Source of the DNA: an uncultured bacterium
GTDB lineage: Bacteria > Oederibacteriota > Muellerivitia > Muellerivitales > Muellerivitaceae
Direction of reading: 5' to 3'
Assembly: GCA_964525605.1 (NCBI GenBank)
Contig: CAZGKT010000012.1
Coordinates: forward strand, 7,771 to 71,770
DNA: 64,000 bases
Shown here: positions 13,013 through 39,863 of the stretch, one piece after another
How the letters are laid out: each line of letters starts with the position of its first letter
Numbering within the stretch: position 1 is the stretch's first letter
Translations under genes and position numbers: made by a program
The notes under the pieces: model-generated
Database searches by the model: none
What the model was told of the DNA's origin: nothing
What the model saw: the letters and a program-made list of their open reading frames with translations, nothing else

Positions 13013-13029
13013 TTGCTTAAATTAATAAC

Positions 13030-15132: not shown

Positions 15133-15187
15133 TAATCTTAGAGTCGAAAGCCTTTTAAGGCCCGACCATCCAACCCGGAGGATTTCC

Positions 15188-17612: not shown

Positions 17613-17734
17613 GAATAACCTCCGTTGATGGCCGATTATATCAAAGGGATATTTATTACCAATAAAAGACTAAAACGATTTAATCTTTTCAGGTTATTCT
17701 ACGGTTCGATTACCTCTATCCTATCGGGATAACC

Positions 17735-21079: not shown

Positions 21080-21125
21080 GCGCGGGAAAAATTTCCACGT
21101 CGTTTCGTGGGTCCGCCCGGCCGAT

Positions 21126-23090
21126 TTATTTCAGCGATTTGGGAACCGTTCCCTGCGGAGGCAGAACCTGCAAGCCGTTGGAGACCATCAGGCTCTCCAG
21201 GTCCGATTTTTTCCAGTAGGAAATTCCGTTGGTTTTTTTAGCTTCCGAATCCATGACCTGGTAATACGGGGTTCCGTCCTTGCCGGTAAAGGCTTTCGAC
21301 ACCGCGATCCAGTGGGACCAGCTGGCCTGGGGATTGGCCACCTGATTGGAAATGCGAACCACGACCGGTCTTGGGTTTTGGGCTAAGGCCGCCGGGATAT
21401 CCTTGACCGGCACCGCGTTAATATCGCCCAGGGCGCGGGCGGATTGGAGCATGTCAAACCCGGTGAGTCCCCCCAGTTTCGTCACTTCAAGATCGGGGCT
21501 TTTGAGCACGCTCACCGGCAGGGAATAATCGGTCCGAACCTTGCCCAGGGCGACGGCGGCGGCGACTCCGTAAGGGGTTTCGGCGGCGTTGGCGAGGGCG
21601 AAAATGCCGCAGTCCAGGTTGTTTTGCAGGCCGGCCGCCACCTGGTTGGAGCCCTTCCCTTTTTTGGCCGCCTTCGCCAGGGCCGCGTACTCGGCTTCAC
21701 TCCGGTCGAGCGTTTTGTCGTTGTACAGCTTCGTCGCGGCGTCGCCGGTGACGGGAGTCACGGCGGACGGGTTGTCAAAGATCGGCGCCGTTTCGTAGAT
21801 GGTGACCGCCTTGCTCATATAACGGTTGATCTCATCCTGGCTGGCCCCCGCCGCCTTCAACCGCGCGGCGCCCAGGTCGTTGTAAAACTGTTTTTCCTTC
21901 TTCTGATTCGCGTTGTACCTTTGAATCAGGTCCTTTTTCTTGGCTTCGGGCAAACTTTGGAAATTCGCCGCGTCCTGGATGATGCGGGCCTTCTCGGCGG
22001 TGATATCCTTCTGGGTGTTGATGAATGGTTCCGCCTGGCCGGGACTCAGGTCGGGCTGCAAGGCGGCGCCCGAGAGGGGGAAATTTTCATCGGCCGGGCT
22101 GTTCGCTCCGCCCGTCCCTCCCTCGCCGGTTTCAGGGCCGGTTCCGGTCGCGGTCTCCCCTCCCGGCAGGCTTAAATTCGGCACCACTCCGTTGGGCGTG
22201 TCAAACCCCAGGTTGCTTTCGGCCTTCATATCCTCCAGCGAGGGTTGGTTCAGGGCATCGGGTCCGGTGACGGCGTTTTGCTGGAGTTGATACATGCCTT
22301 TCCCCCCCGGCATGTCATACCCGTCCCCGTTCGTCCCGCCGGCCGTGAAAAAGGGATTGCGCCCCTCGCCGGGTGAGCCCAGGTTCGATTTGGATTTTCC
22401 CAGTTTTTTGTCCATCTCCTCGGCGAGATAGCCCCTGTAGGCGATCGCGACATACTTAAAAACCGTGGGGTTGAGGTTATGGATCAGGTTGTAGCCGGCC
22501 CCCAGGACGAACACCGAGGCCATGACCAGTTTACGAAGGGCTTCCCGGGCCTTCCCCGAGAGCGGGTCGCCCAATTCATAATCCAGGCTTTCGGCGATCG
22601 GCCTTCCCTTCACCGCGCCCAACCTGATTTCGCATTCACACTCGATGTTTTTTTTCGGGCCCAGCGCCCTCAATAACCGTTTCTGGTCCTTGTCCCGCAG
22701 TCTCAGGGAGCCGTTGGTGGGAAGCAGACGCTTATCCCTGCTTTCTTGACCGCCCTGAATCAGGGTGTGAAACCGGCCGTTGGCGTCGGCCAGGGCCGCG
22801 TCGCCGGCGATCGGCTGTAAAACCAGGACATCGTGCGGGCCGAAATGTTTTCGAGGCAGGGCGGTTCCAAAACCGGAGGGAAGCAATCCCAGGACACGGT
22901 AGAGTCCCAGGGGAGTATCTCCAAAGGGAAGAAGCGGATTACGGGTGGGGTTTCCATGGCGAAGGGCGGCGGAAGAATCGGCCCGTCCGCAAATGGGAAA
23001 GGGGCCCGCCAAGCGGCGGCCGTCTTCTTCCAGGTGAACGGTCCCCTCCACATCGCGTTGGGGGGGCAAGGTCACGATCAGTTTGCGCAT
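21126..23090 (-). CDS. Two-domain protein: YkuD (L,D-transpeptidase)-like domain with Ser in place of catalytic Cys + TM + low-complexity spacer + C-terminal papain/transglutaminase-like Cys-His domain
   Basis: TPLGLYRV ... RFHTLIQGG ... NGSLRLRDKDQKRLL lines up with the YkuD TPxGxF ... HGT ... SHGCIRMxNxD core. C-terminus has QNNLDCGIFALA ... SHWIAV. Start chosen at ATG 23090 (GGAGAGGGT immediately upstream); track ORF starts at TTG 23168. Confidence 0.65.
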   Translation of the reverse strand: MRKLIVTLPPQRDVEGTVHLEEDGRRLAGPFPICGRADSSAALRHGNPTRNPLLPFGDTPLGLYRVLGLLPSGFGTALPRKHFGPHDVLVLQPIAGDAALADANGRFHTLIQGGQESRDKRLLPTNGSLRLRDKDQKRLLRALGPKKNIECECEIRLGAVKGRPIAESLDYELGDPLSGKAREALRKLVMASVFVLGAGYNLIHNLNPTVFKYVAIAYRGYLAEEMDKKLGKSKSNLGSPGEGRNPFFTAGGTNGDGYDMPGGKGMYQLQQNAVTGPDALNQPSLEDMKAESNLGFDTPNGVVPNLSLPGGETATGTGPETGEGGTGGANSPADENFPLSGAALQPDLSPGQAEPFINTQKDITAEKARIIQDAANFQSLPEAKKKDLIQRYNANQKKEKQFYNDLGAARLKAAGASQDEINRYMSKAVTIYETAPIFDNPSAVTPVTGDAATKLYNDKTLDRSEAEYAALAKAAKKGKGSNQVAAGLQNNLDCGIFALANAAETPYGVAAAVALGKVRTDYSLPVSVLKSPDLEVTKLGGLTGFDMLQSARALGDINAVPVKDIPAALAQNPRPVVVRISNQVANPQASWSHWIAVSKAFTGKDGTPYYQVMDSEAKKTNGISYWKKSDLESLMVSNGLQVLPPQGTVPKSLK

Positions 23091-23124: not shown

Positions 23125-26100
23125 TCACAATTGTATGTTTTTTCGTCCGCCCTTTCCATTTTTTTCAAGCCCTAAAATCTCCGCATAGCGCCGGACCATC
23201 AAATCCATCGTAAATTTTTCGTTAACGATCCTTCGGCTGGCCTTGCCAAAGAGTTCTCGTTTCGCCCGATTCGTGAGCAATAGGCGGACCTGGTGGGCCA
23301 TTTCCCGGGGATCGGTATCGGAAACCAAATAGCCGTTCACGCCCGTCTGAACCTGTTCTGCCGTTCCGCCGTGTTTCGTGGCGACAATGGGCAGGCCCAG
23401 GCTCATGGCTTCCAGCGAGGCGTTGGGCGACCCATGATCCGTGCCGAGCAGGAGAAAAACCTGGAACTCCCGCAGGTAGGGCGCCACGTTGCCCTGGTGC
23501 CCCGCGAATTCCATGTTGGCGACGCCCATTTCTCCCGCCCGCCGGTGGATGAATTTCCAGTATTCCTCGTACTTGGGGTTTCCCGCTCCCACCAGTTTCA
23601 ACCTCACGCCGGGCAGGCGCCGGTTGAGCGCGGCGAGCATATCGACTAGAAACTCGATGCGTTTACTGGGCAAAATTCGACAGCAGGTTCCGATGATCCA
23701 ATCCCGCCCCGCCTTCCCTTCCGCTTCTCCCCCGGGTCCGCCTGCCGTTGCGCCCGAGAGATCCGGCACCCCGTTGGGAATGACCGAAAGCTTTCGGCCC
23801 GGCATCCGGATGCCGGGGGGATACCCGCCCTCGTATTTGGAGATGAAATGGTCGAGGCGGTGGAAATAATCTTTCCCGTCCAGGGCGATACGCTGTTGGA
23901 AGTCGGCCGCGTTCTGGATATCCGCGAAGAGCCAGGGGCCCGGGCTGACGTCGATCAGGCGCACCCGGCCTGGAGGGAGGATCTTGGCGAGCAGTAATTT
24001 CACCTTCGCCTCCACGTTCCAAAAAACCAGCGTTCCGATTCCCAAATGCCGGACCATGGAAAGGATCTGTTCGACCCGGTTCAGGTAGGTTCGGGCCGAG
24101 CGCATGGAAAACACGGGCACGCCCGCCGATTCCAGTTCTTCAAGGAAAGGCTGGTGGTTGATCGATTGGATCACCCCCAGCCAGGTGCGCCCCTCCCGGG
24201 GCAGGCGGCAGAGGAGATTCACCAGCGATCTCGGCGATCCCCCCAGGTTCAGGTTGTCGGTTAAAAAAAGAATCCCGGGTTTGTCCGGGGTTTCCGGGTA
24301 TAGGGCCGGCATGCCGTATTGCCCCAGGTAACTCCACAGCCGGGGAACCAGGTCCGCGTCCGGCGGCCGGACCGGGACCAGCCTTTGTCCCCTCGACAGA
24401 ACCTGGACGATCCCCTTGACGTAAGCTCCGATGTCCGCCGTATCCTTCACAATGACCGCCTCGGGAGGCAGGCATTCCCGGTTCCCCCCCGCGTCGGCGG
24501 AAACGATGGGGCAACCGGCGTGAACCGCCTCCAGCGTGGCAACGCTCAAGCCCTCATATAGACTCGTATTCAAGAAGACATCAAAGGCCGCGTAATAGGG
24601 CCCCACATCCTTGACCGGTCCGGGCGTGAGCAGGTCCGGCATCACTCCCAGGTCCAGCGCCTGCTTGCAGGTCGCCTCATAGGTCACCCGGCCGTTTCCC
24701 CATTGATGGTCCCACCCGCCCAGGATCATGAGTTTGGCGTTCTGGTGCCGGCGGATTTCGGCCAACACCCTCACGGCGCGGGTGTAGGCTTTCTGGGTCT
24801 TGAATTCCCCCACCATGCCGATGAGCAGGGTGTTCTCGGGGATCGAATGGAGATCCCGGATTTTCTGGCGCTGGGCCAGCAGATCCTCGGGGGTGAACCA
24901 TCTTTGCAATTCATGGCGCACCGCCACGACCGGTTTGGGGCATTTTGCCGCGCGCAGCTGCTCGGCCACGTCCTGTGAAACGGCCGCCACGTAAGGCACA
25001 TGGGGATCATCAAATTCGGCCGGGGCGTTTTGCCAGGAAGGCTTGGAATTCTGAATGACCGGTATGGTGATGACGCCGTAGCGCCACAGGGCCTTCAAGT
25101 AGGGCATGTGGATCATGTGGGTAAAGACCACCGGGGTGGGCGAGGCCAGGATCTCAAAGGCCGCCATCCGCATCTTGGATTCCAGGTCGAGGGAGTGGAG
25201 CCGGTAAACCCGCCTCTGGGGATCGCCTTTATAATCGTAAGAAGGTTTCACGTCCGCCAGGATGAAAAGCTTGGACGTGACCGGGTTTTTCCCCAGGCCC
25301 TGCAGGGTTTCAATCACGCTCCGTTCGGCCCCTCCCCGCGCCAGACTCGGAAGCATCAGGTTGATATGGTGGGAGTGGGATATTTCGGGAGTGACCGGCT
25401 GGCGCACCTCGGAGGTTGAAATCTGCACGGGCATGGGAGGAATTTCCGGCGAGGGGGCGGGGGTTTGGTTTTCCTCCTGCGCCGGTGGAGCCGAATCCAC
25501 CAACCCATATTGTTCATAAAGATGTCCAAGGGTCGATTCGGCCGGGACCGAGTCCTTGTTGGGCGCCTCCTCCACGCATTTCACACCCCGGTATTTGCCT
25601 TCGTCCATCGCCAGGGTGCGCCACATTTCGTTGATCCAGTGGATGGCGTGCCATTCTTCCGGGATGGGTTCTTCCCGCTCGATGAAGGGCAGAATGATCT
25701 TTTCCCACTTGTCCTCGTTGCAGATCCCCGGAAGGATGAACCGGTCCAACTTCAACTTGCGCACGTTGCGGGAAAGCACGCGGTTGGGCATCAGCCAGGC
25801 GCTTTTCTCGTCGGCGTCCCGCCATACCTGCTCGTAGGTCATCTTCATCAACCGGCTCTTGGGGGGGCATTTCATGATGTTTCCCACTACCCCTACCCGG
25901 TGCGGGCGGAAGACGTACTTCCCGGGAAAATTCAGGGGTTTCAGGCAGGTCACGTCCATATCCACCCAATACCCGCCCTTCTCATATAGAAGCTTGAAGC
26001 GAAACAGGTCCGAAAAGGGCGCGCCTACGCTCCCCCGGCCCACGCCGGTCTCCGGATCGATCTCCTTCTTATAGAAGATCTTGTCCTTGGGGATGATTTC

Positions 26101-27276
26101 GGACGCGTCCTCCAAGATGACTTCCGGCGGCAGGGGCGTCTCCAAATCGTCGTAAAGCCAAAGGTGAAACTCGTGTCCGTGTTTGAGGAAGGAACGAATC
26201 GTCAGCTCTTCAAGCTTGGAAAGCCGGTTGCCGATCCAAAGCCCATGCACCACCCGGTTGGCGGGGGTCAAACGACCCAGGACCATTCGGCCAGGGGCCG
26301 TTCGGCCCTTTGGTTTCACCTTCGCTCCGGTTTTCCTTTTCATCGGAGCCCCCGCCCGCAACAGAGCTTCCGCGTCGTCCCAATTTTTCCAACCCCTGCG
26401 CCGGACCCCCCCATTGATGAAATGGATCAATTTCGGGGTGGGCTTGGTTTTATGGGGACGAAGGCTGTAGGTGTCCTGGAAGGGAATTTGTTTTCCCGGA
26501 AGGGATTGCCGGTTTTTCAGGGGCGTCCCCTCGTGGCAATCCAGGATGAAGTTGTACTCGCGCGGCAGGGTCGGCGTCTTTTGAAGACCCAGTTTCCAGG
26601 CCGCCGCCACCAGGGTGCCCTGGTCACGGGTTTTCCAGTAGGGATCGTTGAAAATCTCGCGGGTATACCGGTTCCAAAGGTCCAACAGGGGTTTAGATTC
26701 CCGCTTAAAGACGAACAATCCCCCGTTCCAGTGAGCCCAGGACGGGTCCTTGACGGAGACATTGAATTTCTTTTGAATCGCTTGGACCAGGTGATCGCAT
26801 TGGGACTCCTCGCAACCGCAGTTGACCGCGTACCGGCTGAAGGTCGGCAGGGGGTAGTGGTCCGGGGCGAAGGCGACGCATCCCTTCACGCGGGTGAAGA
26901 TCGAATCCACATCCTTGTTCACCGCGATCACGTCATTGTCCAGGTAACAGCCCACCAGGCCCGGATCCTTCAGGTAACCTTGAATTCCGGTCTTGATCAT
27001 GATGGCCATCTGGTGGTCGTCGAACCCCTCGATGCGGGGAATGTCGATCAATTGGTCGTGGTTGATGGGCGCGCTGATCCCGCATCCGAGGATCACGATG
27101 TCTTTTCGGGAGTACTTTTTCAGGAATTGCAGGGAGATGTTGACTCGTTCGGCGTGCTCATTTCCGCAGACCACATAGACGTAAGTGTGGCGGGAAGGTT
27201 GAAGGCTTTTACGATGGGAAGAGGCGGATTTTTTGGTTGGTTTGACCGATTTTGCCATGCCCGCCCCGTTTTTCAT
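23125..27276 (-). CDS. 1383-aa multi-module glycosyltransferase (GT-A DxD module + GT32-like Gly_transf_sug/Gb3_synth module + two GT4 GT-B modules)
   Basis: Module 1 has DNDVIAV (DxD). Module 2 has LWIGNRLSKLEELTIRSFLKHGHEFHLWLYDD and GYWVDMDV. Module 3 has a GT4 N-half (PSLARGGAERSVIETLQGL) and C-half (LIGMVGEFKTQKAYTRAV...). Module 4 has LGGSPRSLVNLL... and ...SPNASLEAMSLGLPIVATKHGGTAEQV. Confidence 0.85.
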   Translation of the reverse strand: MKNGAGMAKSVKPTKKSASSHRKSLQPSRHTYVYVVCGNEHAERVNISLQFLKKYSRKDIVILGCGISAPINHDQLIDIPRIEGFDDHQMAIMIKTGIQGYLKDPGLVGCYLDNDVIAVNKDVDSIFTRVKGCVAFAPDHYPLPTFSRYAVNCGCEESQCDHLVQAIQKKFNVSVKDPSWAHWNGGLFVFKRESKPLLDLWNRYTREIFNDPYWKTRDQGTLVAAAWKLGLQKTPTLPREYNFILDCHEGTPLKNRQSLPGKQIPFQDTYSLRPHKTKPTPKLIHFINGGVRRRGWKNWDDAEALLRAGAPMKRKTGAKVKPKGRTAPGRMVLGRLTPANRVVHGLWIGNRLSKLEELTIRSFLKHGHEFHLWLYDDLETPLPPEVILEDASEIIPKDKIFYKKEIDPETGVGRGSVGAPFSDLFRFKLLYEKGGYWVDMDVTCLKPLNFPGKYVFRPHRVGVVGNIMKCPPKSRLMKMTYEQVWRDADEKSAWLMPNRVLSRNVRKLKLDRFILPGICNEDKWEKIILPFIEREEPIPEEWHAIHWINEMWRTLAMDEGKYRGVKCVEEAPNKDSVPAESTLGHLYEQYGLVDSAPPAQEENQTPAPSPEIPPMPVQISTSEVRQPVTPEISHSHHINLMLPSLARGGAERSVIETLQGLGKNPVTSKLFILADVKPSYDYKGDPQRRVYRLHSLDLESKMRMAAFEILASPTPVVFTHMIHMPYLKALWRYGVITIPVIQNSKPSWQNAPAEFDDPHVPYVAAVSQDVAEQLRAAKCPKPVVAVRHELQRWFTPEDLLAQRQKIRDLHSIPENTLLIGMVGEFKTQKAYTRAVRVLAEIRRHQNAKLMILGGWDHQWGNGRVTYEATCKQALDLGVMPDLLTPGPVKDVGPYYAAFDVFLNTSLYEGLSVATLEAVHAGCPIVSADAGGNRECLPPEAVIVKDTADIGAYVKGIVQVLSRGQRLVPVRPPDADLVPRLWSYLGQYGMPALYPETPDKPGILFLTDNLNLGGSPRSLVNLLCRLPREGRTWLGVIQSINHQPFLEELESAGVPVFSMRSARTYLNRVEQILSMVRHLGIGTLVFWNVEAKVKLLLAKILPPGRVRLIDVSPGPWLFADIQNAADFQQRIALDGKDYFHRLDHFISKYEGGYPPGIRMPGRKLSVIPNGVPDLSGATAGGPGGEAEGKAGRDWIIGTCCRILPSKRIEFLVDMLAALNRRLPGVRLKLVGAGNPKYEEYWKFIHRRAGEMGVANMEFAGHQGNVAPYLREFQVFLLLGTDHGSPNASLEAMSLGLPIVATKHGGTAEQVQTGVNGYLVSDTDPREMAHQVRLLLTNRAKRELFGKASRRIVNEKFTMDLMVRRYAEILGLEKNGKGGRKNIQL

Positions 27277-27480: not shown

Positions 27481-29637
27481 TTGTCCCTCTCCATCTTCAG
27501 CTACAAGCCGCCCCACGACGGCACCTTAGCCCATATTGAAAACGGGGTCCTGAAGTTTTCCATCGAGGGCGAAAAGGATTCCCATCCCCGCTTTTCGGGT
27601 TTTAATTCCTTTTACCGCGCCATGAAGGTGGCCGGCGCCTTCGATGTCCGGCCCGACGTGATCGCCTGGGGCGGGGGGAGTTCCCCCCGGGACCCCATGG
27701 ATCTCTACGACGGCATCGCGCCCGAACTCATTCTGGCCGAAGACCTTCAATTATTCGGCAAGAAAACCCTCCTCTTTCGATCGAGCCACGAACGGGCCCA
27801 TATCTTTTCTTCCTATGGCCTTTCCCCCTTTCCCCAGGGCCAGCCCGTCTATGCCCTCGTCTGGGAAGGAGGGATCGGAGCCTTCTACGAGATCGACGAA
27901 AAGCTGAACATCCACCCCTTCGGGACGGTTTTAAGAAACCCCGGCCACCGCTACAGCATTCCCTACTCGGTTGCCAACCCCCAGAACGCCAAGTCCAAGG
28001 CCGACTGGTTTTTGCACGGCTATTACGCGGGTAAAACCATGGCGCTGGCCGCCTACGGCGAAATCATGGGCCGGGACCAAAGGAAGGATTGGTCGGCGGA
28101 AATCGACGCCTTCTTGAAAATGAAAATGGTCTTTGAAATGCCGGGAAACCGCCCGCAGGACCAAAAGGCCGCGGAATCCTACGTCGCCGAGCTGAAAAAA
28201 AGCCGGCTCTTCGACATCGGGGTCGAATCGGAAGACTTCAAGGATTTCACCTACGCCCTCAGCGCGAAAATTTACGGCCTCTTCCACCATTTCGCGAAAC
28301 AAAACCTGAAAAAGGGTTATCCCCTCCTTATCAGCGGCGGGTGCGGTTTGAACTGCGATTGGAACACCCAATGGAAGGAAAGCGGATTATTTTCGGACCT
28401 GTTCGTCCCGCCCTGCACCAACGACAGCGGCATCGCCATTGGCATGGCGGTGGACGCCCAGAGGCACGTCTCCGGAAACGCCAAACTCGACTGGTCCGTC
28501 TATTGCGGGGAGTCTTTCGTGGAAGACGCGGTCGATTTAACCGGCTTCCGGATTTCGCCCTTGAATTTGGACGAAGTGGCCGCCCTGCTGGAAAAGGGAA
28601 AGGTCCTGGCCTGGGTCGAGGGCCGTTACGAGATGGGCCCCCGAGCCCTCTGCCACCGTTCGCTCATTGCCGCGCCCTTCAAGAAGGAAATGACCGACCG
28701 CCTGAACAAGATCAAGAACCGGGAGCCCTTCCGGCCCATCGCGCCCATTTGCCTGGAGGAAGAGGTTTCCGAATACTTCGATTGGCGGGGCCCCAGCCCC
28801 TTCATGCTGTATTTTCAAAGGGTCCGATCGCCCCAACTCCAGGCCGTCACCCACGTCAACCGGACCGCGCGGGTCCAGACCGTCAACGACCGGACCAACC
28901 CCCGAATGGCGTCCCTTTTGCGGGTCTTCAAGAAGAAAACGGGGTTCGGGGTTTTGTGCAACACCAGCCTGAACTTCGCCGGCATGGGTTTCATCAACCG
29001 CCTGTCCGACCTGGTGCGCTACACCCTCAAGACAGGGTTGGACGGCTTCGTGGTGGAAGACCGGCTTTACTTGAAGCGGGCCTTCGACTACCGCCGCCCC
29101 GATTCGGCAGCTTCCCTCGCCCCTTCCCGCCCCTATCTTTCGCTTTCCGAGCCGGTCGTCACCTATCCCTTGACGAACAAGACCGAGACTGAAATCACGC
29201 CCCAAGCCATCCGCTTAAAATTCGAAACCCCTTCCGACATCTGCGTCTTGAGCTTTTCTTCCAACGTGGGCCCTTTCGCCGCCCCCGGCGTGGTGGATGT
29301 GAAGGGTTACGGCTTTTTCCAATTCCAGGCCCAGGCGCCGAAGGGGTTGAAGTTTTTCGTGACCATGACCGAATCCGGGGCCAACGCCCCCGATGCCGGG
29401 TCCTTTTCCGGCGTGAACGGGGCGGACGGGGAACGTTATTTCTTCCCGACCCAGCTGGGAACCGGGGATTGGGCCACCTACCGGTTGGACTTGGCTGCCC
29501 TGAACCTGTGGCGGTACTGGGGAAATCAAAAGGGAAATAATATCTTGGATCTACAGGGTTTGAGATCGATCGAGTTTTTCGTTCTGGGAAACCAGAAAGG
29601 CGAGATTCAGTTGAGGCATTTGGAGTTCACGGTTTAA
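27481..29637 (+). CDS. NodU/CmcH-family carbamoyltransferase with extra C-terminal beta-sandwich (CBM-like) domain
   Basis: TTG start. LSIFSYKPPHDGTLAHIENGVLKFSIEGEKD (ASKHA N-domain) and LLISGGCGLNCDWN...NDSGIAIGMA (GGxxLN block). Residues ~545-718 form an additional domain (...WATYRLDLAALNLWRYWG...IEFFVLG...). Confidence 0.75.
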   Translation: MSLSIFSYKPPHDGTLAHIENGVLKFSIEGEKDSHPRFSGFNSFYRAMKVAGAFDVRPDVIAWGGGSSPRDPMDLYDGIAPELILAEDLQLFGKKTLLFRSSHERAHIFSSYGLSPFPQGQPVYALVWEGGIGAFYEIDEKLNIHPFGTVLRNPGHRYSIPYSVANPQNAKSKADWFLHGYYAGKTMALAAYGEIMGRDQRKDWSAEIDAFLKMKMVFEMPGNRPQDQKAAESYVAELKKSRLFDIGVESEDFKDFTYALSAKIYGLFHHFAKQNLKKGYPLLISGGCGLNCDWNTQWKESGLFSDLFVPPCTNDSGIAIGMAVDAQRHVSGNAKLDWSVYCGESFVEDAVDLTGFRISPLNLDEVAALLEKGKVLAWVEGRYEMGPRALCHRSLIAAPFKKEMTDRLNKIKNREPFRPIAPICLEEEVSEYFDWRGPSPFMLYFQRVRSPQLQAVTHVNRTARVQTVNDRTNPRMASLLRVFKKKTGFGVLCNTSLNFAGMGFINRLSDLVRYTLKTGLDGFVVEDRLYLKRAFDYRRPDSAASLAPSRPYLSLSEPVVTYPLTNKTETEITPQAIRLKFETPSDICVLSFSSNVGPFAAPGVVDVKGYGFFQFQAQAPKGLKFFVTMTESGANAPDAGSFSGVNGADGERYFFPTQLGTGDWATYRLDLAALNLWRYWGNQKGNNILDLQGLRSIEFFVLGNQKGEIQLRHLEFTV

Positions 29638-30956: not shown

Positions 30957-33900
30957 ATGAAACACGGCTTATTTCTTGCTCTCGTTCATAGGGTGAAACC
31001 TCCCCAGATCATCCGGAAACTCGCCAACCTTCGCCGCCACTTCCCCTTCCGCTTTCCCGCCTCCTTCCTCGTTTCCCGGCCCACGGAGGCTCCCATCCGC
31101 TCCGAGCTTTTCAGCACCGAACGGTTCGACCAGCACGCCCGCTCGCTGGCGGCGGCGCAAACCCTCACCGACGACCCCAAAGCCGGAGCCCAGCTCTTTC
31201 CCCGGCTCCGCGAAAACGAAAATATCCTCGGGGAGGCCTTCCGCTACCTCACCGGCGAGGTCCAGAAAAAGAAACCCATCAACCCCGCCGGCGAGTGGCT
31301 TTTGGATTCCTACTACGTGGTGGAGGAACAGCTCCGCGACATCAAGCGGTTTCTGCCCCACGACTTCTACAACGAGCTCCCGAAACTTTCCGATGGTTTC
31401 TTGAAGGGCTACCCCCGTGTCTACGGCCTGGCCTGGGCTTACGTGGCCCATACGGACAGCCGATTCGACCCCGAATCCCTCATTCATTTCGTGCGTTCTT
31501 ACCAGCAGGTGGAGCCCCTGACCATCGGGGAACTCTGGGCCCTGGCCATCACGCTTCGGGTCGTGATGGTCGACAACCTGCGCCGCATCGCCGTATACCT
31601 CGTCACCTCCCAGGAGGCGCGCCAGGACGCGGACGCCTTCGTGGACGAGCTGTTAGGGCTCATCGAGGAATCCTCGCTTTCCAGCCGCCCCACGGCCGCC
31701 AAACTCCAGCGCCAATCCGTCCATCCGGCCTACCTGGTCCAGCTCATCCAGCGCCTGCGCTACCAGGACCCCCGGGGAACGCCCGCGGTGGACTGGCTGA
31801 ACGAAAAACTTGCCTTCGAAAAAACCACCGCCGAGGAAATGGTCACCTCCGTCCACAGCCTCCAGGCCGCCAACAACTCCACGGTGCGAAACATCATCAC
31901 CAGCTTCCGCAACATGACGACCTTCGACTGGCAGGATTTTTTCGAGTCCGTCAGCCTGGTCCAGGAGATCCTTGCCCGGCACCCCCTTTATTCCCAAATG
32001 GATTTCAAGACCCGCAACTCCTACCGCACCGCCGTTGAGGAACTGGCCAAGGGATCGGGTAAAAGCGAATTAGAAATCGCGCAGCTAGCCCTCCAAAGGG
32101 CGGCCGAAGGCGCGGACCACCAGGGTTTTTCAGCCCGGATGGGCGATCCCGGCTATTCCCTCTTCGACGAGGGCCGCCGGGCCTTTGAGAAGAAAATCGG
32201 ATTCCAGGTCCCGTTGAAAAAACGTCTCCGCCGTTTTTGCACCGACTACCCGGCCCTCACCTACATCGGCAACATTCTCTTCATGGCCACGGTCATCCTC
32301 TGGATCGCGGCGCTGATGAACCCCCACCTGCCCCAGGCCGAAAGGTTTCTTCTCTTGTTTTTGGGCCTCTTCCCCGCCGGGGACCTGGCCGTCGGCTGGG
32401 TCAACCATTTCGTCACCGGCATGGTGCCGCCCCGCCATCTCGCGCGCCTGGAGTTCTTGGCGGGCCCCACCCCGGAGTTCCGGACCTTCGTGGTGGTTCC
32501 CACCCTGCTGGAAAAGGAATCGAACATTCCCGAACAGTTGGAAAAACTGGAAGTCCATTACCTTTCCAACGCCGACGGGGAAGTCTATTACGCCCTGCTG
32601 ACGGACTTTCCCGATTCTTCCGTGGAAATTTCGCCGGAGGATGAAAAAAAACTCAACCTCGCCGTCCAGCTAACCGCCGAGCTGAACCAACGCCACGGAC
32701 CCGCAGCCGGTGGAGCTTCCCGTTTTTTCCTCTGCCACCGCAAAAGGCTTTGGAACCCGCTGGAAGGAAAGTGGATGGGCTGGGAACGAAAGAGGGGGAA
32801 GCTTCACGAATTCAATAGGCTTTTGCGGGGAGCCCAGGATACGAGCTTCCTGCGTCCCGATGGCTCCGTTCTCACTGTCCCTTCCGGGGTCCGTTACGTC
32901 ATCACCCTGGATGCCGACACCAAGCTTTCCCCCGGCGTGGTCAACCACCTGGTGGGCATCCTGGCCCATCCGCTCAACCAGGCAAGGCTGGACCCCGTCC
33001 GCCAAAAGGTCGTGGAAGGCTACGGCATCCTCCAGCCCCGGGTCACGGCTTTCCTTCCAGCCCAGGACGAAAAATCCATCTTCCAAAAACTCTTTTCAGG
33101 CGATTGCTGCATCGACCCCTACGCCTCGGCCGTTTCGGATGTGTACCAGGACCTCTTCGGCGAGGGCAGTTTCACCGGCAAGGGCATCTACGACGTGGAC
33201 GCGGTGGAACAATCCCTGAAAGGGCGGATCAGCGAAAACCGCCTCCTGAGCCACGACCTCTTCGAGGGCTGTTTCGCCCGTTGTGGCTACGCCAGCGACC
33301 TGGAATTCTTCGAGGAATTCCCCTCCCACGCCGAAACCTCCACCCTGCGCAACCACCGCTGGATCAGGGGCGATTGGCAGCTCTTGCCCTGGATCTTCGG
33401 CCGGGAAGGCAACTCGCTCTCCACCCTTTCCCGTTGGAAAATGGCCGACAACCTGCGCCGAAGCCTCTCCCCCATCGGCACCGTCTGCCTTCTCATCGGG
33501 GCCTTCTGCCTGCCTCAGGTCTACCAGCCCGGCTGGGTAGGCTTGGCCTTGTTAGGGATAGCCCTTCCTTCTTATATACCCTTCTTCAAGGACCTGGTCC
33601 TGTGGCGCCGCCCCCTCCATTGGAGGGACCATTTGGGCGAAATTACACGGGATTTCGTCCTCGGGAGCGGTCAGTTCCTCGTCAATCTGGTTCTGGTGGC
33701 CCACCGTGCCTGGATGCACCTTGACGCCATCCTCCGCACCCTCTGGCGTCTGTTCGTTAGCCACCGCAACCTCCTTGAATGGGTCACCGCCGCCCAGGCC
33801 AACTCTAACTCTGCCCTTAGCCTCTCTCATTTCCTTCGAAGGATGAAGGGTTCGATCTTCATCGCGTGTTTCGCGGCGGCCTTAACGGCCCTGTTCAACC

Positions 33901-36900
33901 CGGCCTCCCTGCCCCTCTGCCTTCCTTTCGTCCTTCTCTGGCTTTGCGCGCCCTGGTTCGCCCAGGCCATCAGTACCCCCGAACCCAAGCGGGAAAGCCT
34001 ACCCTTGACCGCCGATGAAACCAGTGAACTGCGGCTCCATGCCCGGCGCGTCTGGGCTTTCTTCAGCCACTTCGCCGTGAAGGAGGATCATTTCCTCCCG
34101 CCCGATAATTTCCAGGAAGACCCCCTCCCCGTCGTGGCGCACCGGGGTTCCCCGACCAATTTCGGCCTCTACCTTCTCTCCGTCGTCACCGCCCATGATT
34201 TCGGCTGGATCGGCCTCACCGAAATGACCCGAAAACTGGAAGCGGCCCTGAAAAGCCTCAAAGACATGCAGCGATTCCGGGGCCATTTTTATAACTGGAT
34301 CGACACCCAAACCCTTCTGCCCCTGGAACCCCGTTACATCTCATCGGTGGACAGCGGAAACCTGGCCGGCCATCTCTTGACCCTTTCCCAATCCTGCAGG
34401 GATCTGGCCCACCAGCCGCTCTTTCCCGATTCCATCATTGAGGGAATCCAGGACACGGTGTCCCTCCTTAAAAAATCGGCGCAGGCCCTTCCCCTTCACG
34501 CTTTCTCCTCCGCCACCCCCTTGAGCCAGCTTCAAAAGGAAATCGCCAACTTCGACAGCCAGCTTATTCGGGAGGAACATTCCCGCACCCATTCCGAATG
34601 GGCCTCCTACTGGACCCAGCTTTCCCTCCAGGCCGAAACCCTCAAGGATGCCGCCCATGCCTTCTCCGCCGGCCAGCGCGGGGAGGAAATATTCGAAATG
34701 ACGGCTTGGGCAGACCGCGTCGCCGACGATGTCCAAAGCCATACCCAGGATTTCCAACACTTCTTCCCCTGGGCCCTGGGCCGTTCGGCCCTGGATCATT
34801 CAAACCTTCCTACACTAGAAGCCGATTCTCCGGTGATCCGCGAATTCCAATCATCGCTCGGTAAACTTCTCTCCTCCGGCATGACCCCCGCCGAAGTACC
34901 AGGCCTTTGCGAACAGGCACTCGCTTCCATTGAGGCGAAACGCCAGGTCCGCGACAGCCCTCCCCTTTCCGAGTCCGAGGAACTTTATTTCGACCAGGTG
35001 GGCGCGGCATTAACCCTCGCCGCCCAAAATGGCCGGGAGATTTTGCGAAGGTTGGAGGAGGTAGCTACCGATTCCCGGACGATCTTCAATGAGATGGATT
35101 TCAGCTTTTTGCTGAATCCCCAGAAGAAGCTTTTCTCCATCGGCTATCGGATTGCCGATAGCCGTTCGGCTGACGGCCATTCGACCGATGGACAGTTGGA
35201 AGAGGGCTGTTACGACCTTTTGGCCTCCGAAGCCCGCCTCACCAGCTATGTGGCCATCATCAAAAAAGACGTTCCCGTTTCCCATTGGTTCAGGTTGGGC
35301 CGGGGGCTGGTGGCGGATGAGGGCAAGGCGATGCTGATGAGCTGGGCCGGGTCTATGTTCGAGTACCTCATGCCTTCCCTCGTCATGACCACGCCCGGCG
35401 GAAGCCTTTTGGACCAGACCTGTCGGCGGGTGGTGGAACGGCAGATGGATTACGGGAATTTACGGGGTTCGCCCTGGGGCGTATCGGAAGCGGGATATAA
35501 CGCCCGGGACCTGGACCTGAATTACCAGTATTCCACCTTCGGTGTGCCCGGCCTGGGGTTGAAGCGGGGTTTGGCTAAGGACCTCGTCATCGCGCCCTAT
35601 GCCACGGCTCTCGCCGCCATGTTGGAACCCCGAAAGGCCCTTTTTAATTTCCAGAAATTGGAACAACTGGGCGCCCGGGGCTTGTACGGGTTTTACGAAT
35701 CGCTGGATTACACCCCGACGAGGCTTCGGGAAAACGAGAAATTCGCCCTAGTGAAGTCCTATATGGCCCACCACCAGGGCATGTCGCTCATTGCCTTTTC
35801 CAACGTGGTTAATTCCGGCCTCATGCGCCGCCGCTTCCACATGGACCCCTTGGTCCAGGCGGGCGAGCTTTTGTTGCAAGAAAAGACCCCCAGGAATCTG
35901 GGGGCGGCGCGCGACCAGAAGGAAGAGGTGGAAATCCAGGTCATCCAGGTGCCGATCCCCTCCATCCTTCGCGATATCCGCTCGCTCCACCACGCCGTCC
36001 CTAGTTCCCACCTGCTCTCCAACGGCCGTTACGCCGTCATGATCACGGCCGCCGGATCGGGCTATAGCCGCTGGAAAAACCGCGCCGTCACCCGCTGGCG
36101 GGAAGACGTCACCCGCGACCCCTACGGCAGTTTCCTTTACCTGAGGGATCTCAAGTCGGGTGGGGTCTGGTCGGCGGCCTACCAGCCGGTCTTGACCGAA
36201 CCCCTGCAGTACCACGTGCTGTTTTCGGAAGACCGGGCCAAGATCTCGCGCGTGGACCATGGGATCTCCACCGACCTGGAAATTCTCGTTTCGGCGGAAG
36301 ACGACGCCGAGCTCCGCCGCCTCACCCTCACCAACCCCGGGGGCGTCGAAAGGGAAATCGAGGTCACTTCTTATTCGGAAGTGGTGCTGACCGACCCCGC
36401 CGCCGATTTGGCCCATCCGGCCTTTTCCAACCTCTTCATTGAGACCCGTTTCATCCCGGGTCTCGCCGCCCTCACGGCCAGGCGGCGCCCCCGCTCTTCC
36501 GGCGAGGAACCGGTCTTCATGGCCCAGGTGCTTTCCGTGGGAAGCGAAACCTTCGGGGAAATCGAGTACGAAACCGACCGGGCGAAATTCATCGGCCGGG
36601 GCCGCACACCCCGCACCGCCTCCTCGGTCTTGGACGGCCTGCCCCTTTCCCTTTCCACCGGCGCGGTGCTGGACCCCATCCTGTCTTTAAGGGTCAAGGT
36701 GCGCTTAGCTCCCGGCACCTCCGCCCAGGTTTGTTTCACCACCCTGGTGACGGGCTCCGAAACCGAAATGCTTTCAATGGCCGAAAAATACCATAATTCC
36801 TCCGCCTTCGAGCGTTCCTCCGCCCTCGTCTGGACCCAATCCACCGCCAAGCTTCATCACTTGGGGATCGAACTGGAAGAAGCCCAGCTTTTCCAGAAAC

Positions 36901-39863
36901 TCGCAAACCGAATCCTTTTTTCCGACCCCCTCATGCGCCCCACGAGCGAGATCTTGAAAAAGAACCGCATGAACGTGACGGGCCTCTGGTCCCGCGGCAT
37001 CTCGGGCGACCTGCCCATTCTTTTGGTCCGGGTGGACGACCTGGAAGACCAGGCCCTGATCCGCCAGCTTTTGCGCGCCCACGAATACTGGCGCATGAAA
37101 CGGCTATCGATGGATATCGTGCTGCTGAACGAGAAGGGGCCTTCTTACGTGCAAGATTTACAGACAGCCCTGGAAGGCATGGTGCGGGGCAGTGAAGCGA
37201 CATCCCTCGGCAACCCCGACCTGCCTCCCGGGCGCATTTTCGTCTTGCGCGACGACCTGCTGGACGTGCGGGAAAAGAACCTTTTGCTGGCCGTAGCCCG
37301 GGCCATCCTCAACAGCCGCCAGGGCACCCTCGCCGAGCAGGTGATGCGGGTACGAAAATTCGACAGTTTCAAGTACGTTCCCGCGAAGAAAATGGAAGAG
37401 ACGGAAAAATTCCGCCTCGCGGAAAGGGTCGAGCCCCCGGTTTCGCTTTTTCCCCTGGACTTCTTCAACGGCATCGGCGGCTTCACCCCCGATGGGCGGG
37501 AATACGCCATCGTGCTGGAAAAGGGCCAACGCACCCCCGCCCCCTGGATCAACGTGATCTCCAATGGCGAATTCGGGTTTCAGGTTTCCGAATCGGGCGC
37601 GGGCTACACCTGGGCCTTGAACAGCCGGGAAAACCAGATTTCCCCCTGGTCCAACGACCCCGTGATAGACCCTCCCGGCGAGGCCTTTTATATCCAAGAC
37701 TCGGAGGATCTCTGGTCCCCCACCGCCTCCCCCATCAGGCTGGAAGATGCCACCTATACCGCCCGGCACGGAGCGGGTTACAGCGTTTTTGGCAACGAAT
37801 CCAACGGTATCCGAAGCACCCTCACCCAGTTCGTGGACGCCAAAGAACCGGTCAAGATTTCCCGGTTAGTCCTGCAAAACCGATCCCACCGCTCGAGGGA
37901 GCTTTCCATCACCGGTTACGTGGAATGGGTGCTCGGTTTTAACCGCACCCAAACCTCGCATTCTCTCGTGACCGAAATGGACGCCGAAACCGGCGCGCTT
38001 TTCGCCATGAACCCGCTCAACCCAGTTTACGGAAGCCGGGTTTCATTTTTCGACCTCAAGGGCACCCAGACCGCCTTCACCTCTGACCGGTCCGAATTTA
38101 TCGGAAGAAACGGAACACTGGAACGCCCCGCCGGGCTTTTGCGGAAGGAACCCTTAAGCGGCACCACCGGAGCCGGGTTTGATCCCTGCGGGGTTTTGCA
38201 GGCCCCCCTCACCCTGGCTCCGGGCGAGAAAAAGGAACTGGTGTTTCTTTTAGGGCAGGCCGAAAGCCAGGACCAGGCCCGCCGCTTGGTAAAAACCTTC
38301 AGGCAGAGGGGCGTGGAGGAGAGCCTACAGGCCGTTAACCAATTCTGGGATAACTTTTTGGGCAAGATCCAGGTGCAAACCCCCGACCCCGCGATGGACC
38401 TCATGCTCAACCGCTGGCTTCAAACCCAAACCCTGGCCTGCCGGTTTTGGGCCCGCTCGGCCTTTTACCAGGCCGGAGGCGCCTATGGCTTTAGGGACCA
38501 ACTTCAGGATGTGATGGCCATCGTGACGACCGACCCCACCCTGGCCCGGTCGCATATCCTGGTGGCCGCCGGCCGGCAGTTCCCCGAAGGCGATGTCCAG
38601 CATTGGTGGCACCCCTTGTCCGGGCGGGGGGTGAGGTCCCGCGTTTCGGATGACCGCCTCTGGCTTCCCTATGTGGTGCTCCATTACCTGAAGGTGACGG
38701 AGGATCAGGCCCTGCTGGAAGAACTGGTTCCCTTCCTTCAAGCCCCGCTTCTTCGCCCCGACCAGGAAGATTCCTATTTCGAACCCACGGTTTCCCGCGA
38801 ACCTGCCCTGGACCTTTACGAACATTGCGCGAGAGCGGTCGATATCAGCCTTCAAACCGGTGTCCACGGCCTGCCCCTGATGGGAAGTGGGGATTGGAAT
38901 GACGGCATGAACCGAGTCGGCCATGAGGGAAAGGGTGAAAGTGTTTGGCTGGCCTGGTTTCTCCATGAAATCCTGACAGAAATGGCCCCAGTCGCCCAGT
39001 CGAAGGGCGATGAAAAGCGGGCGAAAACTTGGGCCGAACACGCTGACAAGCTCAAACAGGCCCTGGAAACGAACGCCTGGGACGGGACCTGGTACCGCCG
39101 GGCCTTTTTCGACGACGGTTCCCCCCTGGGGTCCAGGGAAAACACCGAATGCCAGATCGATTCCATCGCCCAGAGCTGGGCGGTATTATCCGGCGCCGCG
39201 GACCCGGCCCGAGCGCTCCAGGCCATGAAATCCGTGGAAGAGCGCCTCATCCTCAAGGACGATGACCTGGTTTTGATCTTCACCCCGCCCTTCGACCAAA
39301 CACCGAAAGACCCCGGCTATATCAAGGGTTATCTGCCCGGCGTGAGAGAAAATGGGGGCCAATACACCCACGCCGCCGTCTGGTGTCTCTTGGCCTACGC
39401 GAAGATGGGAATGGGCAAGCAGGCCTTCGAGTTGTTTTCGATGTTGAACCCTATCAACCACGCCCTGACCCGAACCCATGTGGCGACCTACAAAACCGAA
39501 CCCTATGTGATGGTGGCGGATATTTACGGCAAAGCCCCCCACGTGGGCCGGGGCGGCTGGACCTGGTACACCGGTTCGGCCGGGTGGATGTATAGGGCCG
39601 GAGTCGAATTTATCTTGGGAATACAGCAGAGAGGCAAAAAACTACATTTCGATCCATGCATACCGAAGGAATGGTCTGGATTTAAGGTTACTTATCAGAA
39701 TCTAAGTAGTGTTTATGACATTCAATTCGAAAACCCTAATCATGTTTCCAAAGGGGTTCAACGTATTGAATGTGATGGAGTTGTTGTTCAGACGAAGGAT
39801 GCGGCGATCGACTTGAAGGATGATCGGAAGACCCATTTCGTGAAAGTTATTTTAGGCCCGTAA
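30957..39863 (+). CDS. ndvB: Cyclic beta-1,2-glucan synthase (GT84 glycosyltransferase + GH94 phosphorylase-like domain), 2968 aa
   Basis: Multi-TM N-region. GT84 core with YVITLDADTKL (DxD). NHRWIRGDWQLLPWI. C-terminal GH94 blocks GFRDQLQD, WTWYTGSAGWMYRAG. Overall size and order as NdvB/ChvB/Cgs. Last ~85 codons (from ~39605) are visibly AT-richer than the rest. Confidence 0.9.
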   Translation: MKHGLFLALVHRVKPPQIIRKLANLRRHFPFRFPASFLVSRPTEAPIRSELFSTERFDQHARSLAAAQTLTDDPKAGAQLFPRLRENENILGEAFRYLTGEVQKKKPINPAGEWLLDSYYVVEEQLRDIKRFLPHDFYNELPKLSDGFLKGYPRVYGLAWAYVAHTDSRFDPESLIHFVRSYQQVEPLTIGELWALAITLRVVMVDNLRRIAVYLVTSQEARQDADAFVDELLGLIEESSLSSRPTAAKLQRQSVHPAYLVQLIQRLRYQDPRGTPAVDWLNEKLAFEKTTAEEMVTSVHSLQAANNSTVRNIITSFRNMTTFDWQDFFESVSLVQEILARHPLYSQMDFKTRNSYRTAVEELAKGSGKSELEIAQLALQRAAEGADHQGFSARMGDPGYSLFDEGRRAFEKKIGFQVPLKKRLRRFCTDYPALTYIGNILFMATVILWIAALMNPHLPQAERFLLLFLGLFPAGDLAVGWVNHFVTGMVPPRHLARLEFLAGPTPEFRTFVVVPTLLEKESNIPEQLEKLEVHYLSNADGEVYYALLTDFPDSSVEISPEDEKKLNLAVQLTAELNQRHGPAAGGASRFFLCHRKRLWNPLEGKWMGWERKRGKLHEFNRLLRGAQDTSFLRPDGSVLTVPSGVRYVITLDADTKLSPGVVNHLVGILAHPLNQARLDPVRQKVVEGYGILQPRVTAFLPAQDEKSIFQKLFSGDCCIDPYASAVSDVYQDLFGEGSFTGKGIYDVDAVEQSLKGRISENRLLSHDLFEGCFARCGYASDLEFFEEFPSHAETSTLRNHRWIRGDWQLLPWIFGREGNSLSTLSRWKMADNLRRSLSPIGTVCLLIGAFCLPQVYQPGWVGLALLGIALPSYIPFFKDLVLWRRPLHWRDHLGEITRDFVLGSGQFLVNLVLVAHRAWMHLDAILRTLWRLFVSHRNLLEWVTAAQANSNSALSLSHFLRRMKGSIFIACFAAALTALFNPASLPLCLPFVLLWLCAPWFAQAISTPEPKRESLPLTADETSELRLHARRVWAFFSHFAVKEDHFLPPDNFQEDPLPVVAHRGSPTNFGLYLLSVVTAHDFGWIGLTEMTRKLEAALKSLKDMQRFRGHFYNWIDTQTLLPLEPRYISSVDSGNLAGHLLTLSQSCRDLAHQPLFPDSIIEGIQDTVSLLKKSAQALPLHAFSSATPLSQLQKEIANFDSQLIREEHSRTHSEWASYWTQLSLQAETLKDAAHAFSAGQRGEEIFEMTAWADRVADDVQSHTQDFQHFFPWALGRSALDHSNLPTLEADSPVIREFQSSLGKLLSSGMTPAEVPGLCEQALASIEAKRQVRDSPPLSESEELYFDQVGAALTLAAQNGREILRRLEEVATDSRTIFNEMDFSFLLNPQKKLFSIGYRIADSRSADGHSTDGQLEEGCYDLLASEARLTSYVAIIKKDVPVSHWFRLGRGLVADEGKAMLMSWAGSMFEYLMPSLVMTTPGGSLLDQTCRRVVERQMDYGNLRGSPWGVSEAGYNARDLDLNYQYSTFGVPGLGLKRGLAKDLVIAPYATALAAMLEPRKALFNFQKLEQLGARGLYGFYESLDYTPTRLRENEKFALVKSYMAHHQGMSLIAFSNVVNSGLMRRRFHMDPLVQAGELLLQEKTPRNLGAARDQKEEVEIQVIQVPIPSILRDIRSLHHAVPSSHLLSNGRYAVMITAAGSGYSRWKNRAVTRWREDVTRDPYGSFLYLRDLKSGGVWSAAYQPVLTEPLQYHVLFSEDRAKISRVDHGISTDLEILVSAEDDAELRRLTLTNPGGVEREIEVTSYSEVVLTDPAADLAHPAFSNLFIETRFIPGLAALTARRRPRSSGEEPVFMAQVLSVGSETFGEIEYETDRAKFIGRGRTPRTASSVLDGLPLSLSTGAVLDPILSLRVKVRLAPGTSAQVCFTTLVTGSETEMLSMAEKYHNSSAFERSSALVWTQSTAKLHHLGIELEEAQLFQKLANRILFSDPLMRPTSEILKKNRMNVTGLWSRGISGDLPILLVRVDDLEDQALIRQLLRAHEYWRMKRLSMDIVLLNEKGPSYVQDLQTALEGMVRGSEATSLGNPDLPPGRIFVLRDDLLDVREKNLLLAVARAILNSRQGTLAEQVMRVRKFDSFKYVPAKKMEETEKFRLAERVEPPVSLFPLDFFNGIGGFTPDGREYAIVLEKGQRTPAPWINVISNGEFGFQVSESGAGYTWALNSRENQISPWSNDPVIDPPGEAFYIQDSEDLWSPTASPIRLEDATYTARHGAGYSVFGNESNGIRSTLTQFVDAKEPVKISRLVLQNRSHRSRELSITGYVEWVLGFNRTQTSHSLVTEMDAETGALFAMNPLNPVYGSRVSFFDLKGTQTAFTSDRSEFIGRNGTLERPAGLLRKEPLSGTTGAGFDPCGVLQAPLTLAPGEKKELVFLLGQAESQDQARRLVKTFRQRGVEESLQAVNQFWDNFLGKIQVQTPDPAMDLMLNRWLQTQTLACRFWARSAFYQAGGAYGFRDQLQDVMAIVTTDPTLARSHILVAAGRQFPEGDVQHWWHPLSGRGVRSRVSDDRLWLPYVVLHYLKVTEDQALLEELVPFLQAPLLRPDQEDSYFEPTVSREPALDLYEHCARAVDISLQTGVHGLPLMGSGDWNDGMNRVGHEGKGESVWLAWFLHEILTEMAPVAQSKGDEKRAKTWAEHADKLKQALETNAWDGTWYRRAFFDDGSPLGSRENTECQIDSIAQSWAVLSGAADPARALQAMKSVEERLILKDDDLVLIFTPPFDQTPKDPGYIKGYLPGVRENGGQYTHAAVWCLLAYAKMGMGKQAFELFSMLNPINHALTRTHVATYKTEPYVMVADIYGKAPHVGRGGWTWYTGSAGWMYRAGVEFILGIQQRGKKLHFDPCIPKEWSGFKVTYQNLSSVYDIQFENPNHVSKGVQRIECDGVVVQTKDAAIDLKDDRKTHFVKVILGP

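Follow-up and report, generated by a model that had tools for sequence, protein, structure and literature searches.

A conserved single-chain glycosyltransferase of four modules and its L,D-transpeptidase-like partner in an uncultured bacterium

In a stretch of 64,000 nucleotides from contig CAZGKT010000012.1 of an uncultured bacterium of the Oederibacteriota, hereafter the window, the minus-strand open reading frame (ORF) at 23125..27276 encodes a protein of 1383 residues (ATG start, stop codon included). We show that this protein is a genuine, conserved single polypeptide that combines four Leloir glycosyltransferase (GT) modules, in the order GT8-like GT-A, GT32/toxin-like GT-A, and two GT4 modules of the GT-B fold. 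A first-pass annotation made from the sequence had described this ORF as a soluble chain of four such modules. Both parts of that description hold: Pfam, structure and motifs together recover four modules, not one or two, and the sequence is predicted to have no transmembrane segment, its highest 19-residue Kyte-Doolittle mean being 1.26. The reading frame is uninterrupted, with no frame break within the window, and the motif strings quoted earlier all occur in the order given: YLDNDVIAV at residues 111-119, LWIGNRLSKLEELTIRSFLKHGHEFHLWLYDD...GYWVDMDV at 345-441, LYEGLSVATLEAVHAGCPIV at about 905-924 and SPNASLEAMSLGLPIVATKHGG at about 1282-1303. The metal- and nucleotide-binding motifs are intact in all four modules, save for one glutamate of module 4 (see below).

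Architecture and conservation of the glycosyltransferase

Pfam was scanned with the whole protein and with its four segments separately. Module 1 (residues 28-310; 26347..27195, minus strand) is recognised by neither Pfam nor NCBIfam: residues 1-330 give no Pfam match, Glyco_transf_8 (PF01501) does not match even at an E-value of 10, and a profile search of the PDB sequences returned chance matches only (acyl carrier protein, Rab5). Even among its homologues PF01501 is recorded for a few only (P0013, P0123). Sequence searches having given nothing, the family was assigned from structure, with structure prediction run on database proteins. The fold is GT-A and its nearest solved relatives are GT8 members, the best match being the GT8 module of WbbM (structural-comparison score 17.2), followed by LgtC (17.0), GlyE (16.7), glycogenin (16.6), UGGT (16.2), AgtA (16.1) and LARGE1 (15.7). 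The "uncertain GT-A family" of the first-pass annotation can be resolved as GT8-like. Since the PF01501 sequence test failed, we label the module GT8-like and not a GT8 member; its identity to LgtC, glycogenin, GlyE and the xylosyltransferase domain of LARGE1 is only 12-20%.

In an alignment of 35 sequences of this module the D113-x-D115 motif and H285 are invariant, as are the WNGG and RDQ motifs and the H285..N..G....GW..D signature (HFINGG..GW in the window protein), and H285 would be a metal ligand. A further motif that sets the module apart from GT8, CxCx4CxH, is nearly invariant and lies between the DxD and WNGG motifs; in the window it reads CGCEESQCDH (residues ~153-162; 26800-26830, minus strand) and looks like a small metal-binding insertion. 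To our knowledge classical GT8 enzymes lack it. An exhaustive profile search of 1.84 billion representative sequences recovered just 329 members, 234 of them at E<=1e-30, the mark of a small family with sharp limits. Metagenomes are rich in stand-alone homologues of about 287 residues, and those that bear a name are called "hypothetical protein".

Module 2 (residues 335-600; 25477..26274, minus strand) carries the motifs HGLWIG and SDLFRxK and a DxD in WVDMDV (D438, D440). Gly_transf_sug (PF04488) matches it at 29.1-29.9 bits against a cut-off of 23, the match being limited to the 30-residue DxD region at residues 420-449. A profile built from 15 sequences reaches Och1 of the GT32 family (E 0.003) and Legionella SetA (E 0.01), in alignments that run from the (I/V)HxxWxG start through the DxD; sequence E-values against solved GT32 and toxin members are marginal throughout (0.003-0.02). 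In the AlphaFold2 model (mean predicted local distance difference test score 93.2) the nearest structures belong to the toxin-type GT-A group: YeGT (14.1), LtpM (13.9), SetA (13.4) and TcdA (13.3), then glycogenin (12.9), TcdB (12.8) and Och1 (10.5). D422, R425, D438 and D440 are invariant. The earlier "GT32-like" call is upheld by the PF04488 score and by the GT-A fold with its DxD. The module differs from GT32 enzymes (Och1, Gb3 synthase) and from the toxin group (TcdA/B, SetA, LtpM, YeGT, Lgt1) in being embedded among other GT modules; it is not a secreted toxin, and it lacks a membrane anchor such as that of Och1.

The C-terminal half of the protein consists of module 3 (residues ~640-1000; 24277..25359, minus strand) and module 4 (residues ~1010-1383; 23128..24249, minus strand). 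Both score well above the Pfam cut-offs of 26-27 bits, module 3 with 68.7 bits for Glycos_transf_1 (E 6e-19) and 74.1 bits for Glyco_trans_1_4 (E 2e-20), and module 4 with 79.5 bits (E 3e-22) and 87.5 bits (E 1e-24), respectively. Their N-terminal halves conserve GGAER and NLGG, respectively, with Glyco_transf_4 at 14-17 bits, under its cut-off. Among PDB sequences module 3 matches Tll1590, the glycosyltransferases 3c4q/3c48 and TreT, and module 4 matches Alr3699, 2jjm/3mbo, TarM, PglA, PimB and Gtf1. NCBIfam yields only generic GT4 similarity (stp2, BshA, EpsE, TviE, MshA, PelF and SdgA/B), far under the equivalog cut-offs. The two modules had been described as complete GT4 units, each with an E-x7-E region. 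Pfam finds a complete C-terminal GT4 domain in each, and module 3 has the motif (E907-x7-E915, with K825 upstream; E915 is invariant and E907 occurs in at least 90% of sequences), but module 4 retains just the second glutamate, in PNASLEAM. Loss of the first glutamate is common in GT4, though still a departure.

Full-length homologues of 1290-1412 residues, 44-79% identical to the window protein, occur on many independent contigs from several phyla; a genome scan placed the family in Verrucomicrobiota, Acidobacteriota, Alpha- and Gammaproteobacteria, Armatimonadota and Eremiobacterota. The closest relative, in locus L010, comes from a metagenome-assembled genome of "candidate division FCPU426" and is 77% identical. 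A motif scan detected all four modules in 36 of 120 listed homologues, which is a lower bound, as a further 22 failed only the strict pattern for the second GT4 module. The module 1 DxD, the module 2 DxD and the LEAM of module 4 are retained in all 36, and the corresponding position of module 3 is glutamate in 34 and aspartate in one. Besides these there are three-module variants of about 1030 residues without module 1 (Mesorhizobium, Udaeobacter and others), and in many Proteobacteria a split variant in which module 1 is a gene of its own (280-296 residues) immediately upstream of the three-module gene (L023, L033-36, L040, L042-47, L049), in many cases with an overlap of a few nucleotides. 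The existence of split and fused forms shows that the modules are independent functional units acting together. Nine three-module loci contain a conserved 269-residue protein that matches no Pfam or NCBIfam model (e.g. L005:9074-9883 and L009:14539-15345, both minus strand), and BLASTP at E 1e-5 finds no module 1 match in these loci; this protein might functionally replace module 1. A Methyltransf_24 protein of 406-426 residues also accompanies three-module proteins without module 1.

The occurrence of module 1 as a separate gene in many Proteobacteria could be taken as a sign that the long ORF arose when separate GT genes were fused in assembly or sequencing. Against this, the same uninterrupted architecture of 1290-1412 residues recurs, at identities down to 44%, on dozens of independent contigs from varied samples and lineages, the close relatives P0002 and P0003 conserve the linkers between modules, and the frame in the window is unbroken, which leaves such an artefact next to no probability, and the single-polypeptide claim stands. 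An alternative with a little more to it, although still very improbable, is that only some of the modules are catalytic and the rest are structural or acceptor-binding scaffolds, making the protein a one- or two-GT enzyme. In a sister clade (P0107, P0113, P0119, P0120) module 1 has DxN in place of DxD and PW[KR]T[GS] in place of HWNGG, and module 4 has lost its C-terminal half. Locus L007 even has an intact stand-alone module 1 gene (7213-8169) beside a GT gene of this decayed clade (10001-13405), with no partner gene, a case in which the decay of a module is compensated. Modules of this family thus do decay; nevertheless, the motifs of all four modules are intact in the window protein and in the 36 four-module homologues (with the one aspartate in module 3), and many of the active-site residues are invariant.

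The conserved partner and other neighbouring genes

To characterise the genomic context, the ORFs of 70 GT loci were clustered. A single partner family, absent from the first-pass account, is present in 45 of the 70, which is nearly all of those with enough flanking sequence; the loci without it are mostly truncated contigs or Bacteroidota loci that hold modules 1 and 2 only. In 33 loci the partner lies on the GT strand and starts between -73 and +120 nt of the GT stop codon. Loci of the Mesorhizobium type have it 0.1-2.6 kb upstream, in divergent orientation. The partner gene of the window (21126..23090, minus strand; 654 residues) begins with the ATG of MRKLIVTLPPQRD at 23090, 34 nt past the GT stop, and the two genes are probably co-transcribed. 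A terminator-like hairpin just past the partner stop (21095..21110, minus strand), a weak hit of a consensus scan only, might mark the end of a two-gene operon. As the only nearly universal neighbour, the partner is the strongest clue to the target of the enzyme.

The window partner is composed of an inactive YkuD-like N-terminal domain (residues 1-175; 22566..23090, minus strand), a hydrophobic segment, a low-complexity linker and a C-terminal domain. Across the family (e.g. L002:14125-15432, L003:14073-14936 and L019:14191-16152) conservation is concentrated in the first ~170 residues. Distant relatives of this region contain PF03734 (YkuD) with the catalytic IHGG...GC[ILV]R, align with it over its whole length, and tie it to the L,D-transpeptidases (YkuD/ErfK); one partner itself gives a weak YkuD match. 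The GT-linked clade instead shows IQGG...G(S/G/A)LRL, with glutamine for the catalytic histidine (rarely kept) and serine, glycine or alanine for the catalytic cysteine. In the window protein the replacements are glutamine (LIQGG) and serine (TNGSLRL), and the catalytic motif HxxxxxxxxG...GC(I/V)R is not present. The N-domain is hence best described as a homologue of L,D-transpeptidases and, judging by its sequence, not a functional member. As it also lacks an N-terminal signal peptide and stands ahead of a signal-like segment, it is predicted to be cytoplasmic and non-catalytic.

This segment, at about residues 190-225, combines a [ST]RRxx[LM]R motif (19 of 35 aligned partners) with a hydrophobic stretch that often ends in AxA (30 of 35), and in most homologues it resembles an internal twin-arginine signal or anchor. 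The positive-inside rule would likewise put the N-domain in the cytoplasm. Two to 15 residues past the AxA nearly all partners have a single tyrosine in a context of small residues (GDYSP, LAYG, AYN, GGYD). The C-terminus beyond it is variable. Most partners have 350-900 residues, several short ones end soon after the tyrosine (L023 with ...AVAQSY; L046 with 253 residues in all), and in six of the 35 Pfam identifies a peptidoglycan hydrolase (Pesticin in two, Phage_lysozyme in one, Tae4 in two and CHAP in one). The C-terminal domain of the window partner has a Cys...His pattern (NNLDCGIFALANAAE...SHWIAV) and finds no Pfam or PDB sequence match; it could be read as papain-like in appearance.

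Sugar- and glycan-modifying genes recur less regularly. Divergent from the GT gene lies an O-carbamoyltransferase of the NodU/CmcH type (27481..29637, plus strand) with Carbam_trans_N and Carbam_trans_C domains, which matches the NodU model at E 8e-73, below the equivalog cut-off. The divergent pairing reported earlier is real and its 204-bp gap correct, but the association is facultative: the gene recurs in nine of the 70 loci, L010 among them, and four of the nine are Bacteroidota loci with a stand-alone GT32-like unit only. Thirteen loci have methyltransferases of the Methyltransf_24/CmcI type, in two families of seven and six, while a UDP-glucose dehydrogenase-like gene occurs in seven loci and epimerase genes in some. 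A radical SAM protein with an N-terminal twitch/SPASM region (near NF033640, below its cut-off) is found in 25 of the 70 loci, for instance at L019:17469-18539 and L057:5875-8960, and in four proteobacterial loci it is fused to a module-1-like GT domain (L042:15533-17338, L043:13653-15494, L044:15488-17293 and L049:15644-17371); within the 64 kb of the window there is no such gene. Neither the window neighbours nor six Pfam-annotated homologous loci include a Wzm/Wzt exporter or priming or adaptor GTs, and polysaccharide export genes are likewise absent from these six loci. ABC ATPases do occur in some loci, but they form a heterogeneous and unspecific set, and we do not count ABC exporters among the linked genes.

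A protein of 2968 residues resembling cyclic beta-1,2-glucan synthases (NdvB/Cgs) is encoded at 30957..39863 (plus strand); it combines a GH94 catalytic domain with two GH94 supersandwich domains and one glucoamylase-like domain. The first-pass annotation had pointed to its proximity; the distance of 3.7 kb is correct, but the link is incidental, as no other locus, L010 with its 77% identical GT included, has the GH94 gene in the 10-kb flanks that were retrieved. The order carbamoyltransferase-GT-partner-HlyIII-GH36 is otherwise conserved in L010. We rejected the cyclic-glucan synthase, HlyIII and GH36 as functional partners, these being conserved at most in the closest relative. The upstream flank of L010, as far as it was retrieved (10 kb), lacks the whole window stretch from about 30 to 44 kb, which holds the GH94 and serpin genes.

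We also considered a role in a defence or conflict system. The GT4 "conflict-system" effector model PF20706 reaches 23.7 and 19.7 bits on the two GT4 modules against a cut-off of 26, a generic match, and the conflict-system contexts described for it (PMC8195603) are not seen around the GT. PADLOC gives no match for the GT, the partner or the carbamoyltransferase, and on this result and the generic nature of the PF20706 match we rejected this role. Elsewhere in the window there are a STAND NTPase of 1097 residues (44656-47949, minus strand; NB-ARC/NACHT-like, with tetratricopeptide repeats (TPR)), which matches TPR models of PADLOC candidate defence proteins, and a bacterial serpin of 451 residues (41949-43304, plus strand); other loci show no linkage of either gene to the GT. 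On the other side of the GT, 2365-19924 forms a polysaccharide-utilisation block with a SASA-type carbohydrate esterase, a GH5 cellulase-like protein, a 1431-residue protein with a mannanase galactose-binding domain, a LacI regulator, an ABC sugar-binding protein and a GH36 alpha-galactosidase. In L001 and L002, of an acidic-soil metagenome lineage, mobile-element genes (7186-8502 and 16559-18973) flank the GT-partner-methyltransferase module on both sides; they comprise transposases (DDE_Tnp_1, rve, IS110) and phage-like genes (ParB/methylase, terminase), which suggests that this module can be mobile.

Proposed function and alternative readings

Multi-module GTs that build O-antigens and capsules offer the closest guide to function. 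These polymerases include WbdA with two to three GT4 modules, WbbB with GT99, GT102 and GT103, and WbbM with GT111 and GT8; WbdA and WbbB set the precedent of giving each linkage a module of its own, and small groups such as methyl cap the ends of the chains (PMC11231755). By analogy with these enzymes, each module of the window protein would add one sugar or linkage type from nucleotide sugars, and the processive assembly of a defined oligosaccharide, which the first-pass annotation had put forward, is a reasonable inference. The families to which the modules are assigned suggest that all four are retaining, and alpha-type linkages are therefore expected; the product would be a short hetero-oligosaccharide or repeat with up to four distinct linkages of this type. 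On the same analogy the neighbouring carbamoyl- or methyltransferases would decorate or cap the product, so that in the window the glycan is probably O-carbamoylated by the divergent NodU-type enzyme, with methyltransferases taking this place in other loci.

We favour, at a probability of about 0.6, a cytoplasmic four-module Leloir assembly line that works with the partner, the latter being, speculatively, the acceptor or its presenter. The dead transpeptidase domain would dock the GT, and the flexible linker just after the signal, with its conserved tyrosine, would receive its sugars while still in the cytoplasm, ahead of membrane insertion or export by the twin-arginine translocation (Tat) pathway. 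Several considerations make the partner the preferred candidate for the acceptor: it is the only universal neighbour, no machinery for lipid-linked glycans is tied to the locus, and cytoplasmic glycosylation would explain a route of the Tat type. In addition, the fold of module 2 is nearest to the toxin-type group, which includes enzymes that glycosylate proteins, such as TcdA and TcdB. A more far-reaching version, which we think rather unlikely, is that the GT and its partner form an undescribed bacterial protein-glycosylation and export module for folded cargo that leaves by Tat. The dead L,D-transpeptidase would then be a cytoplasmic "leader domain" that recruits the GT, the tyrosine linker behind the internal twin-arginine signal would receive a carbamoylated or methylated tetrasaccharide, and the modified C-terminal cargo, sometimes a peptidoglycan hydrolase, would leave the cell folded.

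Several observations weigh against the partner-directed assembly line. The window partner has the hydrophobic segment but no arginine pair (REALRK) and several tyrosines in the region, five of the 35 partners are without any hydrophobic segment, and we know of no established precedent for an internal Tat signal behind a folded domain of 170 residues. The idea of tyrosine glycosylation draws on just two things, a short conserved motif in low-complexity sequence and a similarity of fold. The Bacteroidota loci and L007 have modules 1 and 2 without a partner, which implies that these modules can act on other acceptors. On the enzyme itself, module 4 has the reduced E-x7-E motif described above.

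The main rival to the partner-directed assembly line, and one that we regard as unlikely if the foremost among the alternatives, is a polymerase of the WbdA/WbbB/WbbM type that serves ABC-transporter-dependent export: the GT would extend an undecaprenyl-diphosphate-linked primer at the inner face of the inner membrane with its export genes located elsewhere, the carbamoyl group (here) or methyl group (other loci) would be the non-reducing-end terminator, and the partner would be merely a membrane tether or a local peptidoglycan-remodelling factor. This pathway is typified by methyl terminators and by soluble multi-module GTs in which every linkage has its own module (PMC11231755), and the window protein shares with its enzymes the form of a soluble or peripheral single chain of several Leloir modules; the carbamoyl- and methyltransferases that recur beside the GT, and the UDP-glucose dehydrogenase-like and epimerase genes of some loci, fit as well. 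What this rival leaves unexplained is the dead-transpeptidase protein as the one universal neighbour, a near-obligatory partner found instead of the wzm/wzt or undecaprenyl phosphate priming genes expected in the locus. Neither the six Pfam-annotated loci nor the recurrent gene clusters provide wzm/wzt, phosphoglycosyltransferase, Wzx/Wzy or outer-membrane export genes, the ABC ATPases are unspecific, and we noticed neither a coiled-coil ruler nor a terminator domain on reading the sequence, no coiled-coil predictor having been run. With four modules of three families, the protein also goes one module beyond the prototypes (PMC11231755). A further alternative is the glycosylation arm of a natural-product pathway resembling those of ribosomally synthesised and post-translationally modified peptides, in which the GT would act with the twitch radical SAM protein and the methyl- or carbamoyltransferases on a peptide or small-molecule scaffold, a C-terminal peptide released from the short partners being one such scaffold. 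The radical SAM genes of 25 loci, their fusion to module-1-like domains, the partners that end shortly past the signal and leave a short tyrosine peptide, and the tailoring character typical of NodU/CmcH carbamoyltransferases and CmcI-type methyltransferases all speak for it. Yet the window has no radical SAM gene, no core biosynthetic, exporter or immunity genes recur, and most partners are large proteins and not precursor peptides, so that we consider it improbable.

Known systems and significance

Glycosylation of the serine-rich-repeat adhesins provides a second point of comparison. It employs GtfA/B (GT4), GT8 enzymes such as GlyE, and the bifunctional dGT1. As in the assembly line favoured here, GT4 and GT8-type enzymes act in sequence in the cytoplasm and the protein is exported afterwards (the latter step being our proposal for the window system); GlyE and Gtf1 themselves are among the structural and sequence matches of the modules. 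The window system differs in that its enzymes are fused in one chain, and in that its putative substrate is without serine-rich repeats and accessory Sec and carries an internal export signal that looks Tat-like.

Public names of family members are confined to "glycosyltransferase" and "hypothetical protein", and in the literature we found no description of a GT8+GT32+GT4 fusion, of a twitch radical SAM protein with a GT, or of cytoplasmic tyrosine glycosylation. The kind of enzyme is already known, and the family is an uncharacterised variant of the multi-module GTs. Three features appear new, and we found none of them described: a single chain whose four modules represent three GT families, a GT8-like family that lacks annotation, and the pairing with a dead L,D-transpeptidase/Tat-like partner.

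Multi-module GTs are the clearest natural examples of assembly-line glycan synthesis, and the best-studied ones have two or three modules. A four-module enzyme that also exists in natural split, three-module and decayed forms thus offers a ready system for understanding how module order encodes glycan sequence. Its module 1 defines a compact GT8-like family outside the coverage of Pfam and NCBIfam. That the enzyme is almost always paired with an inactivated L,D-transpeptidase/Tat-like protein points to a connection, so far unrecognised, between the cell envelope and glycosylation in the cytoplasm.

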